Assembly: GCA_040776985.1 (NCBI GenBank)
Contig: JAXGZL010000003.1
Location: forward strand, 54,970 to 118,969
Reading direction: 5' to 3'
From: Christensenellales bacterium
GTDB lineage: Bacteria > Bacillota > Clostridia > Christensenellales > Aristaeellaceae
Length of the DNA: 64,000 nt
Shown: one piece after another, positions 40,040 through 62,760 of the stretch
Numbering within the stretch: the stretch's first letter is position 1
Layout of the letters: the number at the start of each line of letters is the position of its first letter
Notes under the pieces: generated by a model
Databases searched by the model: none
Told to the model about the DNA's origin: nothing
Seen by the model: the letters and a program-made list of their open reading frames with translations, nothing else
Translations under genes and position numbers: made by a program

Positions 40040-40245
40040 TTATGGAACTGCCCGAAAGCATACGCGTGTCATCGCGCCCCACCGCAGGAGCTGATCGCAC
40101 GCCTCGGTCTCCCGGCTTGGCTTCATCCGCTCAGACGCCTTCCCGCTTGCGCAGTGGCCGATGGTCTGATTGTCCGCTTCACGGTTACTGGGTTAGCCTG
40201 GAATTTTCATCCATGTTCCCTGGCGCGGGTTGCCCCTTGCCAGGC
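40040..40245 (-). promoter_or_regulatory. cobalamin (B12) riboswitch
   Basis: Minus strand contains ...AGGGAACATGGATGAAAATTCCAGGCTAACCCAGTAACCGTGAAGCGG...GGCCACTGCGCAAGCGGGAAGGC... with the B12 box GCCACTG at 40152-40158, then the hairpin GGGCAG...CTGCCC before the RBS. Confidence 0.85.
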
Positions 40246-40370
40246 GCGCGCAACTGTTCATTTGTCATGTGAAGTATACCCTGCGCACATTACCCTGTCA
40301 ACGCAAAAGGGCCTTGTGCAGGGCCCTTGATGCGGTTACAATCCCCTTAGCAAGATATCAGGAGGCAACA

Positions 40371-58902: not shown

Positions 58903-59172
58903 ATGGCAGGAGGAGGCGACAGCGTCGCGGTGGATTCAGGCAAACTCTATGTCAATGATGCCCTGGTGGAAGAAGCCTATGTGGATTACCCCGGCTGGTC
59001 GGACTATGCTCGCCGGGTGCTGGGGGAGAACGAATACATGGTGATGGGGGACAACCGGGCGGCCAGCCATGACAGCCGCTCTTGGGATGTAGGCCCCATC
59101 ACGCGGGAGATGATCGTGGGGCATGTCTCCCTGGTGGTTTATCCCTTCGATAAAATCAGAACCATCAACTAA
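58903..59172 (+). pseudogene. 5'-truncated tandem copy of signal peptidase I (C-terminal third only)
   Basis: 89-aa ORF that aligns residue-for-residue with the lepB C-terminus (GDSVA..GKLYVNDALV.E.YVDYP...GDNRA.SHDSR). It lacks the TM helix, the catalytic Ser box and the Lys box. Confidence 0.65.
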
Positions 59173-59195
59173 CAGGCATTGCAAACGCAATTTTA

Positions 59196-59216
59196 AAGCG
59201 CCCCGGAGGGGGCGCT
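59196..59216 (+). terminator. hairpin after the lepB fragment (weak terminator)
   Basis: AAGCGCCCC-gga-GGGGCGCTT with no clear T-run. Confidence 0.35.
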
Positions 59217-59245
59217 TCACCTATCAGGACAGTCAGGAGGAAGCA

Positions 59246-60661
59246 TTGAAGGCTTGGGTTCAAAGGCTGATCAGGCGCATGTGGGCAGTTCCGGGGATAT
59301 CCGGAGAGGAACTTCGCAGCCTTTATCAGGAGGCGATCCGGATTGCCTGGCCTGCCGCGCTGGAAGGGCTGCTGATCAGCGTGATCAGCGCTGTGGACAC
59401 CATGATGGTGGGGGCCATCAGCCCGGCTGCCATTGCCGCGGTGGGGCTCACCGCCCAGCCCCGCATGATCCTGCTGGTTTTGACCCAGGGGCTTAACATC
59501 GGCACCACTGCCCTGGTAGCCAGGCGGAAGGGGGCGGGCAATGAGAAGGGCGTTATCGCCTGCCTGAACCAGTCCCTGTACATCAGCGCCTTGGTGGGGG
59601 TGATGATCACGGTGGCCGGCTTTTTTCTGGCGGAGCCATTCATGCGCTTTGCCGGGGCCAATGAGGAAACCCTGGGCCTTGCCACCAACTATTTCAAGAT
59701 CATCTCCCTGGGCTTTGTGCCCACCAGCATCCACCTGTGCATCTGCGCCGCCTTCAGGGGGCTGGGGAAAACCCGGGTGACCATGTTCACCCATCTGCTG
59801 GCCAACCTGACCAACCTCCTTTTCAACTTCCTGCTGATTGCTGGCCGGCTGGGCTTCCCAAGGCTGGAGGTCAACGGCGCTGCCATCGCCACGGTGCTGG
59901 GCAGCCTGGCTGGCGCGCTGCTGTCCCTCCATTTTGCCAGGAACCCGGACATGGGATTTGCTTACCGGCTGAGGCGCCCGAAGTTTGACCGTGACACCCT
60001 GTCCGGGCTGATCCGGGTGGGGGGATCCTCGGTGATGGAGGCCAGTTTTCTGCGGATCGGCTTTCTGCTGATCACCAAGATCATCGCCAGCCTGGGCACC
60101 CTGTCCCTGGCCGCCTATCAGATCGTCAGCCAGGTAAGCGCCCTGTCCTTCACCCTGGGGGACGGCATCGCCTCCGCGGGAATCGCCATTGTGGGGATGA
60201 GCCTGGGGGCAGGCAACAAAGCCCGGGCTAAACAGGCGGTTTATGTGGCCAGGCGGATCTCTGTGATGGTGTCCCTGGCGCTGATGGCGGTGATTATTGT
60301 TCTGCGGCGCGGGCTGGCTTCCCTGTTTACGGCGGACCAGGCGGTGATTGCCGCCGCTTCCACCGGGTTTTTGATTGCCGCTGTCTCCATCCTGCCGCAA
60401 AACGGACGGGTGGTGTATTCCGGCTGCCTGCGGGGGGCGGGGGATGTGCGCTATGTGGCGCTAACCTCCCTTGTCAGCGTGGCCATCCTGCGCCCGCTGC
60501 TGACCTGGCTGTTCTGCTTCCCGCTGGATAGCCTCCTGCCGCAGCTTCACATGAGCGCGACCGGCCCCTGGCTGGCCTTCCTGCTGGATGCGCTGCTGAG
60601 GAACTATCTGCTGGCCAGACGGGTGAAGGGGGAGGCCTGGACGCAGGTGCGGCTGCAATAA
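59246..60661 (+). CDS. MATE-family efflux transporter
   Basis: 12 TM helices with a MatE-type N-terminus (AWPAALEGLLISVISAVDTMMVG). TTG at 59246 is 6 nt after AGGAGG; the alternative ATG is at 59279. Confidence 0.85.
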   Translation: MKAWVQRLIRRMWAVPGISGEELRSLYQEAIRIAWPAALEGLLISVISAVDTMMVGAISPAAIAAVGLTAQPRMILLVLTQGLNIGTTALVARRKGAGNEKGVIACLNQSLYISALVGVMITVAGFFLAEPFMRFAGANEETLGLATNYFKIISLGFVPTSIHLCICAAFRGLGKTRVTMFTHLLANLTNLLFNFLLIAGRLGFPRLEVNGAAIATVLGSLAGALLSLHFARNPDMGFAYRLRRPKFDRDTLSGLIRVGGSSVMEASFLRIGFLLITKIIASLGTLSLAAYQIVSQVSALSFTLGDGIASAGIAIVGMSLGAGNKARAKQAVYVARRISVMVSLALMAVIIVLRRGLASLFTADQAVIAAASTGFLIAAVSILPQNGRVVYSGCLRGAGDVRYVALTSLVSVAILRPLLTWLFCFPLDSLLPQLHMSATGPWLAFLLDALLRNYLLARRVKGEAWTQVRLQ

Positions 60662-60739
60662 TGTTCCGGAACTGGTTTTTTGATGTTTTTTTATTCATCG
60701 CATGTCCATATTGGGCGGACTTGGAGCAATAAGGGCAAA

Positions 60740-60762
60740 GGGCGGATTGACGCCCTTTTTTT
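60740..60762 (+). terminator. intrinsic terminator after the MATE gene
   Basis: GGGCG-gattga-CGCCC followed by TTTTTTT. Confidence 0.65.
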
Positions 60763-60775
60763 CTCGTGATAGGAT
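60747..60775 (+). promoter_or_regulatory. sigma-A promoter of the cstA leader (extended -10)
   Basis: TTGACG-17 nt-(TGa)TAGGAT. Confidence 0.5.
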
Positions 60776-60781
60776 CCCTGC

Positions 60782-61044
60782 ATATCCAATGCTGTGACGG
60801 GAGAACGGCAAGAGGAGCAGGGTCAAGAGAGCTGCCGGTGGGTGCGAGGCAGTCCCTGAAGTCTTGGCCGACTGGTCCCCGAGCAGGCCGCCCAAAGGCA
60901 GCGATGCCCAGTAGACCGGCCCGCCTCATCCCCGATAAAGGATGCCCGGGCTGGATGGCCTGGAGCAAAGAGGACTTCCTGGAAGTCAAGCAGAGTAGTA
61001 CCGCGGGATAACCCGTCTCTGGCAGTGATGCCGGAGACTTTTTT
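60782..61044 (+). promoter_or_regulatory. T-box-like transcription-attenuation leader
   Basis: Stem I with an AGAGAG bulge and GGTG...GAG distal loop (60823-60852). Stem III at 60973-60987. T-box-like AGAGTAGTACCGCG at 60992-61005. An antiterminator alternates with the terminator GTCTCTGGC-agtgat-GCCGGAGAC-TTTTTT (61015-61044). Confidence 0.55.
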
Positions 61045-61074
61045 ATATAGAAGTTTGTAGCAGGAGGAATGTGT

Positions 61075-62760
61075 ATGAACGGATTGACCATGATGTTGAT
61101 TGCCATTGGCGCGTTGGGGGCGGCGTATCTGCTCTACGGGCGCTACCTTGCCCGGAAATGGGGCGTTGACCCCCATGCCAAAACACCGGCCTATGAACTG
61201 GAGGACGGGGTGGATTATGAGCCGGCGGACACGGCGGTTGTGTTTGGCCACCAGTTTGCCTCCATCGCAGGCGCGGGGCCCATCAACGGGCCCATCCAGG
61301 CGGCGGTTTTTGGCTGGGTGCCTGTGCTTCTGTGGGTTTTGCTGGGCACCATCTTTTTTGGCGCGGTGCAGGATTTTTCTGCCATGTACGCCTCGGTCAA
61401 GAACAAGGGGCGCACCATCGGCTATATCATTGAGGAATACATCGGGAAAACCGGGAAGAAGCTGTTTCTGCTGTTCTGCTGGCTGTTTTGCATTCTGGTG
61501 GTCGCCGCCTTTGCGGATGTGGTGGCCGGCACTTTCAATGGCTTTACGGCGGAAGGCGAAAGGATTGCCGCCAATGGCAGCGTGGCCACCACCAGCGTGG
61601 TGTTTATCGCGGAGGCCATTGCCCTGGGATTTTTGCTTCGCTATGGAAAGCTGAAGAAGTGGACGAACACGGTGATCGCCATTGGTCTTTTGGTGCTGGC
61701 GGTGGCCATTGGGCTGAACGCGCCGATGTTTGTCGCGGCTTCCACCTGGCATATCCTGGTGTTTGTCTATATTTTTGTGGCCAGCATCGTGCCGGTGTGG
61801 TCGCTGCTTCAGCCCCGGGACTATCTGAACAGCTACCTGCTGGTCTTTATGATTGTGGCCAGCGCCGTGGGGATTTTATTCACCAATCCGCAGATCCAGC
61901 TGCCGGCCTTTACCGCCTTTCATGTGGCCGGGGTGGGGAACATGTTCCCGATCCTGTTTGTGACCGTGGCCTGCGGCGCGGTGTCCGGATTTCACAGCCT
62001 GGTCTCCTCCGGCACCTCCTCCAAGCAGATCAAGAACGAGCGGGACATGCTCCCGGTCTCCTTTGGCGCCATGCTGATGGAGGGCCTGCTGGCGGTGATT
62101 GCCCTGATTGCGGTGGCTTCCTTCGCCACTGGCCAGGCGGCTTCCATGGGATACAACACCCCGGCGCAGGTTTTCTCAGGCGGTGTCGCCCGGTTCCTGG
62201 AAGCCCTGGGCATGCCCCATCAGCTGGTGTTCACGCTGATCAACCTGGCGGTTTCCGCCTTTGCGCTCACCAGCCTGGACAGCGTGGCCCGGGTAGGGCG
62301 CCTGTCCTTCCAGGAGCTGTTTCTGGACGCCTCCATCAAGGATGAGGACATGGGGCCGGTGCGCAGGGTGCTGACCAACAAGTACTTTGCCACCCTCATC
62401 ACCCTGGGCTTTGGCTACGCGCTGGCCAAGGTGGGCTACCGCACCATCTGGCCGCTGTTTGGCTACGCCAACCAGCTTCTCAGCGCCCTGTCCCTGGTGG
62501 CCTGCGCCGTCTTCCTGAAGAAGACCAACCGTCAGGGGGCGATGCTCTGGGGCCCGATGGCGATCATGATGGCGATTACCTTTACCGCCCTGGGCATGAA
62601 GATTTACAGCTTCATCACCGCCATCGCAGCGGGCACCTTCAACCCGGCCACGGATTTGCTGCAGATGGTCTTTGCGGTGCTGCTGACCATTCTGGGCGTG
62701 ATTGTGGCCCTGCAGGGAATCGCCAAGCTGACAGAAAAGCATCACACGCAGGCAGCGTAA
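61075..62760 (+). CDS. cstA: carbon starvation protein A (CstA-family peptide/pyruvate transporter)
   Basis: Polytopic membrane protein with the conserved GHQFASIAGAGPINGPI segment. ATG at 61075 is 7 nt after AGGAGG. Confidence 0.9.
   Translation: MNGLTMMLIAIGALGAAYLLYGRYLARKWGVDPHAKTPAYELEDGVDYEPADTAVVFGHQFASIAGAGPINGPIQAAVFGWVPVLLWVLLGTIFFGAVQDFSAMYASVKNKGRTIGYIIEEYIGKTGKKLFLLFCWLFCILVVAAFADVVAGTFNGFTAEGERIAANGSVATTSVVFIAEAIALGFLLRYGKLKKWTNTVIAIGLLVLAVAIGLNAPMFVAASTWHILVFVYIFVASIVPVWSLLQPRDYLNSYLLVFMIVASAVGILFTNPQIQLPAFTAFHVAGVGNMFPILFVTVACGAVSGFHSLVSSGTSSKQIKNERDMLPVSFGAMLMEGLLAVIALIAVASFATGQAASMGYNTPAQVFSGGVARFLEALGMPHQLVFTLINLAVSAFALTSLDSVARVGRLSFQELFLDASIKDEDMGPVRRVLTNKYFATLITLGFGYALAKVGYRTIWPLFGYANQLLSALSLVACAVFLKKTNRQGAMLWGPMAIMMAITFTALGMKIYSFITAIAAGTFNPATDLLQMVFAVLLTILGVIVALQGIAKLTEKHHTQAA

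Follow-up and report, generated by a model that had tools for sequence, protein, structure and literature searches.

Two things set apart the locus considered here: a leader with the outline of a T-box riboswitch precedes cstA, a gene outside the familiar repertoire of T-box targets, and the bulge that should pair with the acceptor end of tRNA reads UAGU, in place of the conserved UGGN. The questions that follow are whether this leader is a T-box at all, which tRNA it would sense, where its unusual A comes from, and what that A would do to the switch. The window, as we call the whole 64,000-nucleotide stretch of Christensenellales DNA that was analysed (assembly GCA_040776985.1, contig JAXGZL010000003.1, positions 54,970 to 118,969), supplies all coordinates that follow unless another contig is named. 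The gap between a MatE gene (59123-60661) and cstA consists of a promoter and a leader of about 265 nt, with these features:

59123-60661, open reading frame of the upstream MatE gene
60737-60758, plus strand, putative terminator of the MatE gene, an 8-bp stem followed by a T-run
60747-60775, plus strand, predicted sigma-70-type promoter of cstA, TTGACG-17-TAGGAT with a TG extended -10
60791-60884, plus strand, Stem I, aligning to RF00230 positions 7-103
60872-60874, plus strand, specifier codon CUG (Leu) in the model's register; the next base, G60875, is an unpaired purine, after which comes the UCCC strand of the basal helix
60886-60946, plus strand, Stem II and the Stem IIA/B region, aligning to model positions 106-153
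60968-60989, plus strand, Stem III with its flanking purine string, read from the sequence
60992-61020, plus strand, antiterminator, aligning to model positions 187-216
60997, plus strand, the A of UAGU, at the place of the expected invariant G that pairs with tRNA C75, a G/A polymorphism within the species
61015-61044, plus strand, intrinsic terminator with a 10-bp stem (61015-61038, one G.U), a GUGA loop and U6 (61039-61044)
61062-62760, plus strand, ribosome-binding site AGGAGG (61062-67) and cstA (Pfam CstA, E 5.6e-148)

The covariance model RF00230 aligned to this leader over its full length (model positions 1-219 at 60785-61023, with all domains present) in a permissive scan of the gap, giving a score of 80.8 bits and an E value of 4.6e-18. 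The T-box architecture that a sequence-only reading had proposed was thereby borne out by a significant alignment, though one under the curated gathering threshold of RF00230, which is 93 bits; an Rfam scan at that score gave no T-box match at the cstA leader, and the permissive scan was required to see it. The sub-threshold score is not disqualifying, because nine of the ten T-box matches in the same genome (38.6 to 102.1 bits, a single one exceeding 93, with the cstA leader in fifth place) also lie below 93 bits, among them those before valS-, hisS-, ileS-, serS-, thrS- and proS-like genes. The Rfam threshold is too strict for the genome of this GC-rich organism, and standard annotation under-reports T-boxes here by missing nine of ten.

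Elsewhere in this genome, three ABC-type substrate-binding lipoprotein genes, two of them tandem paralogues, carry a T-box each (G000 C1:880801-881030, C1:882232-882460 and C1:19392-19628; loci L004, L001 and L003), with UUC-A (Phe), UAC-A (Tyr) and UGG-C (Trp) as specifiers, which suggests an aromatic amino-acid uptake set in which each gene would be tuned by its own tRNA. The window also holds a cobalamin riboswitch (40088-40259, minus strand; 63.9 bits, E 1.7e-13).

Every element listed in the sequence-only reading was located where it had been placed. The promoter was recovered as proposed, one site being found in the scan against 0.2 expected by chance; its -35 box (60747-60752) sits in the loop and 3′ arm of the MatE terminator hairpin. 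Stem I comprises basal GC/GC pairs, a GA (K-turn-like) motif UGUGAC...CGAG with its GA dinucleotides at 60796-97 and 60881-82, the specifier loop, and an AGAGAG bulge and distal loop GGUGGGUGCGA within 60825-60847. The specifier loop is short, with GAAC on its 5′ side and no evident S-turn (no clear AGUA). Hairpins resembling Stem II and Stem IIA, claimed earlier, are supported by the RF00230 alignment over 60886-60946: in Stem II (60886-60921), GGCCG...CGGCC encloses an AGUAG S-turn element as well as an inner GNRA hairpin, and CAUCC...GGAUG is able to form the IIA/B pseudoknot. Stem III, GACUUC-cug-GAAGUC at 60973-60987, is flanked by AAGAG (60968-72) and AA (60988-89) and so displays the 5′-RRRxG-Stem III-AA-3′ purine string that belongs to the aminoacylation-sensing domain (PMC7583486).

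The T-box sequence AGAGUAGUACCGCGGGAUAACCCGUCUCU spans 60992-61020 and can fold into the antiterminator, in which helix A1 (AGAG/CUCU) is followed by the 7-nt bulge UAGUACC (60996-61002, with the A at 60997) and by helix A2 (GCGGG/CCCGU, loop AUAA), closed by a G61003.U61016 pair; the G.U pair closing A2 has been named as a steric sensor (PMC7583486). The antiterminator was as first described except that A1 has 4 bp instead of 3, and the terminator likewise kept its proposed alternation with the antiterminator and its U6 while its stem proved to have 10 bp, not 9. The terminator uses, in its 5′ strand, positions 61015-61020 that also belong to the 3′ half of the antiterminator, which makes the two folds mutually exclusive, and by nearest-neighbour rules on isolated fragments the terminator (-18.4 kcal/mol) is far more stable than the antiterminator (-8.8 kcal/mol), so that termination would be the default state. 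Variation among strains respects these structures: at 60819, 60835, 60869, 60978 and 60984 the variant leaves G.U in place of Watson-Crick pairing, and 60902 C>U converts GCGA into GUGA with the GNRA loop retained. Apart from 60997, the leader variants follow the pattern that selection on a structured RNA would produce. Downstream, the cstA open reading frame as listed opens at ATG 61069 (MCMNG...), and ATG 61075 is likely the true start, because homologues align from residue 3 and the spacing to AGGAGG is better. With its full-length match to RF00230 and with promoter and terminator in the expected places, the cstA leader is a genuine class I (transcriptional) T-box, placed to control cstA; its specificity for tRNA-Leu is taken up below.

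RNA assemblies, which gave leader contigs for G-allele strains only, offer a limited view of the leader in use, contig depth not being a measure of expression. In the metatranscriptome of a G-allele strain (X26), a contig covers 60777-61041, from just past the -10 box into the U-tract, which would be the extent expected of a terminated leader transcript; a contig from X9, which carries G and not A, crosses the terminator into cstA. The X26 contig stops at 61041, its successor starts at 61032 behind adapter letters, and contigs in X36 begin at 61038; these contig ends at 61032-61041 may reflect either a true RNA end at the terminator or a mere assembly break. Three RNA runs from an A-allele study (X38-X40) were nearly pure rRNA, with no mRNA contigs over about 14 kb of neighbouring genes, and the missing cstA RNA in them is uninformative because the runs are almost all rRNA.

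The association of a T-box with cstA had been taken as unfamiliar; a literature search for T-boxes together with cstA gave incidental matches only, and the T-box transporter survey of Wels et al. 2008 (PMC2494555) does not mention cstA. It is not an isolated oddity: many Clostridia have a Leu or Ile T-box ahead of cstA. A BLAST-type search of 201 family genomes with the leader as query recovered no orthologous leaders, its matches being confined to the generic motif of distal Stem I, and orthologous leaders were therefore reached through CstA orthologues. T-boxes of 70-102 bits lie directly upstream of cstA in at least 10 genera of the family, and cstA T-boxes occur also in metagenome-assembled genomes or isolates named Faecousia, Ruthenibacterium, Butyricicoccus and Lacrimispora; taken together, the loci with such leaders are L050, L056/57, L059-61, L065-70, L100, L127/129, L137, L143 and L179-199. 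Our strict structural scan is conservative, misses leaders that the covariance model confirms and gives a lower bound only. In genus g16 (L067-L070), a second T-box of 103-106 bits with GAA-CUG-G (Leu) is divergent from the Ile T-box of cstA. Control of cstA by T-boxes thus appears to be recurrent but patchy across Clostridia, with specifiers that are always Leu or Ile codons (CUG, CUC, AUC). For the E. coli CstA, peptide transport and pyruvate import have each been reported (PMC5847655, PMC7730263), and the recurrent Leu/Ile T-boxes tie this debated transporter family to branched-chain amino acids; they argue that clostridial CstA may serve branched-chain amino acid supply.

Closer to the window, in its own genus, loss of the leader is under way. 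A cstA gene was found in three of 24 species genomes of the genus. In one sister species (G212) the locus is syntenic and about 170 nt have been deleted, from distal Stem I through Stem III, with a terminator degraded by a mismatch; the promoter, the first ~25 nt and an antiterminator with UGGC are kept in the stretch between roughly 200 and 60 nt before cstA (L043), and we read this leader as a T-box probably in decay. No T-box was found before cstA in G207 or in the metagenome contig L123. Both cstA and its leader appear to be dispensable in this genus and in the course of erosion; drift of a damaged allele to appreciable frequency would fit this picture, and relaxed selection on the leader in the genus is plausible.

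The A at 60997 is a polymorphism. It was found in six runs from five studies (X1 and X13 in P1, X2 in P2, X3 in P3, X6 in P4 and X10 in P6), several of the contigs (Logan contigs) being identical to the window over 700 to 2,282 nt. G was found in 11 runs from at least nine studies (X9, X11, X12, X14, X16, X17, X18, X19, X20, X25 and X26), in sister strains that are 97.5-99% identical to the window and carry the canonical UGGU where the window has UAGU. Study P6 holds both alleles. The organism is known only from metagenomes, and the alleles were read from contig assemblies, in which minor variants are lost. The A allele occurs on at least two haplotypes (60790C with 60997A in X10, 60790T with 60997A in the window) and is therefore old enough to have spread over both. 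UGG is present in the nine other T-boxes of the genome, in every cstA T-box retrieved, and in 19 of 19 other antiterminators validated by a structural scan in which the three positions were left free; the syntenic outgroup G212 reads GGGUGGCACC, with G at the equivalent of 60997. Because the outgroup and all other T-boxes examined have G, G is ancestral and A a derived G>A allele that segregates within the species. The non-canonical bulge noted earlier is thus real, while its status as a fixed feature of a new T-box type is not borne out: orthologous cstA leaders do not conserve UAGU, all having UGG, and sister strains of the same species have UGGU.

In the ancestral UGGU form, Stem I would dock the anticodon and elbow of tRNA-Leu, and the free 3′-ACCA end of the uncharged tRNA would pair with the bulge UGGU, keeping the antiterminator together against the much more stable terminator; low leucine charging would then let RNA polymerase read into cstA. 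In the window allele, the transition at the second bulge position would set A opposite C75, with poor or no induction and cstA mostly terminated as the predicted outcome. The change abolishes a pair in the middle of the four-pair acceptor helix, at a loss of ~3-5 kcal/mol: the forced 4-bp acceptor duplex comes to -2.5 kcal/mol with UGGU and +0.6 with UAGU, and the best acceptor duplex to -7.4 and -2.5 kcal/mol, as estimated by nearest-neighbour rules on isolated pieces and not on the folded tRNA-leader complex. No compensating variants in the terminator or elsewhere in the leader were present among the strain contigs compared. In single-molecule work on glyQS, tRNA without the NCCA contact stayed bound for ~4 s, as opposed to >24 s with it (PMC6197855). 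UGGN has been described as invariant in T-boxes (PMC7583486), and among the roughly 23,000 leaders of the T-box database TBDB there are just 48 in which it was not found (PMC7778990). Our overall explanation, to which we give a probability of about 0.65, is that a Leu T-box controls cstA, with induction from the derived UAGU allele most likely poor or absent. The T-box identity, the Leu specificity and a real, polymorphic and derived A count as shown; the same rough figure applies to the inferred part, that UAGU is poorly inducible and leaves cstA largely terminated.

Two further ideas about the bulge were dropped. Pairing of UAGU with the specifier-loop ACUG is a 4-nt match expected by chance and would compete with tRNA binding, and a compensating change in the terminator found no variants there.

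The rival that survives best, though we hold it distinctly less probable, is that UAGU is tolerated: three of the four acceptor pairs, or an A.C or A+.C wobble, would suffice, and cstA would still be inducible by tRNA-Leu, perhaps at a higher threshold, with the anticodon and elbow contacts, the Stem III purine string and A1 stacking intact. Binding of tRNA by T-boxes is multivalent (PMC7583486), and all T-box features other than the bulge are retained here. The allele is common, geographically spread and persists on two haplotypes, and its presence in five studies would be unexpected for a strongly harmful allele. In A-allele strains cstA is intact and identical, and cstA differences among strains fall almost entirely at third codon positions, a sign of purifying selection on the gene within the species. 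The spread of the allele together with a selected, intact cstA leaves real room for a tolerated or threshold-shifting variant. Against tolerance stand the near-invariance of UGGN in TBDB and the UGG shared by the 19 validated antiterminators, the nine other T-boxes of the genome and all cstA leaders, the placement of the mismatch in the middle of a 4-bp helix at the cost given above, and a terminator ~10 kcal/mol more stable than the antiterminator.

A stronger form of this idea, which we think rather improbable, holds that UAGU is a naturally selected and still tRNA-responsive T-box in which an A.C or A+.C opposition to C75 would lower affinity and raise the induction threshold. If that were true, the invariant UGG would have its first natural exception that still functions, and riboswitch set-point tuning would be segregating in wild populations. 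Both alleles are common in anaerobic digesters, and UGGU and UAGU on near-identical leaders amount to a natural experiment on the contact that reads tRNA charging.

That the switch instead senses tRNA-Thr through ACU is very unlikely. The two codons overlap in the loop GACUGG, so that by eye either fits, and the specifier had been left ambiguous between them for this reason; three observations settle the choice on CUG (Leu) and exclude ACU, namely the identity of bulge position N, the variant at 60871 and the register of orthologous leaders. Position N is U, which pairs with A73, the discriminator in 5/5 tRNA-Leu genes, while the discriminator of 3/3 tRNA-Thr genes is U73 and would need N = A, as found in the thrS T-box of the same genome (UGGA); the serS T-box likewise has UGGC against G73, and the N-to-discriminator rule holds for the other T-boxes of this genome. 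The sister-strain variant 60871 A>G turns ACU into GCU and leaves CUG untouched. In the model register GA-CUG-G makes up the 3′ side of the specifier loop and the UCCC strand comes next, and cstA leaders of other genera show CUG-C, CUC-C, AUC-C or AUC-A in matching register, both placing the codon one base ahead of the helix. We conclude that the specifier is CUG, to be read by tRNA-Leu(CAG), whose gene is present (G000 C2:456842).

ARAGORN detected 45 tRNA genes in this genome and found no tRNA-Ile(GAU) or tRNA-Ala(UGC), yet the specifier of the ileS T-box is AUC. Genes for these two tRNAs usually lie in rRNA spacers, so the 3-contig assembly may have merged or lost copies of the rRNA operon.

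A sequencing or assembly error at 60997, which would account for a single-base departure from a highly conserved motif, can practically be dismissed: the same A stands in independently assembled contigs of five studies, which excludes such an error even should the genome itself derive from one of those runs, and other runs are clearly G. Equally negligible is a change of ligand to an RNA or tRNA with a 3′ end in ...ACUA, which has nothing in its favour beyond the UAGU sequence itself and is contradicted by 45/45 tRNA genes that encode ...NCCA and by a strain polymorphism on an otherwise unaltered leader.

Our preferred reading, a Leu T-box on cstA in which the UAGU allele is probably impaired, places the locus close to well-known systems: the element would work as a standard class I T-box does, and it descends from one. 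Canonical class I T-boxes (RF00230; B. subtilis tyrS and glyQS, ilv-leu, ileS) have the same full domain set, with Stem I bearing a GA motif, specifier loop, AG bulge and distal loop, with Stem II, Stem IIA/B and Stem III with its purine string, with the 7-nt bulge between A1 and A2, the G.U pair closing A2 and a competing terminator with a U-tract, and with a match of N to the discriminator of the cognate tRNA. The present leader differs from them in its target, a CstA-family transporter, in its short specifier loop (GAAC, no clear AGUA S-turn), in a score below the Rfam cut-off in a GC-rich genome and, in the window allele, in UAGU in place of UGGU. The cstA leaders of other Clostridia share the downstream gene family, the architecture, a branched-chain codon and its register; unlike the window leader, with its UAGU and Leu codon, all of them retain UGG and most specify Ile (AUC), and they are too diverged to align with it outside conserved T-box motifs.

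Mutations of this bulge have been engineered, reportedly by Grundy, Rollins and Henkin in their mutagenesis of the tyrS T-box. In contrast to engineered mutants of the bulge or of the tRNA 3′ end, the change described here arose naturally and stands at intermediate frequency in wild populations, and it introduces a single mismatch without removing the contact entirely. The glyQS experiments with tRNA lacking NCCA (PMC6197855) come nearest to it, the acceptor-end contact being disrupted there too with anticodon recognition intact. By the sequence-level features that we tested, the G allele of the species appears to be a T-box in every respect, and the window allele departs in one, UGGN. The locus is thus best described, in our view, as a standard class I T-box with a natural sensor mutation, and not as a new type of T-box.
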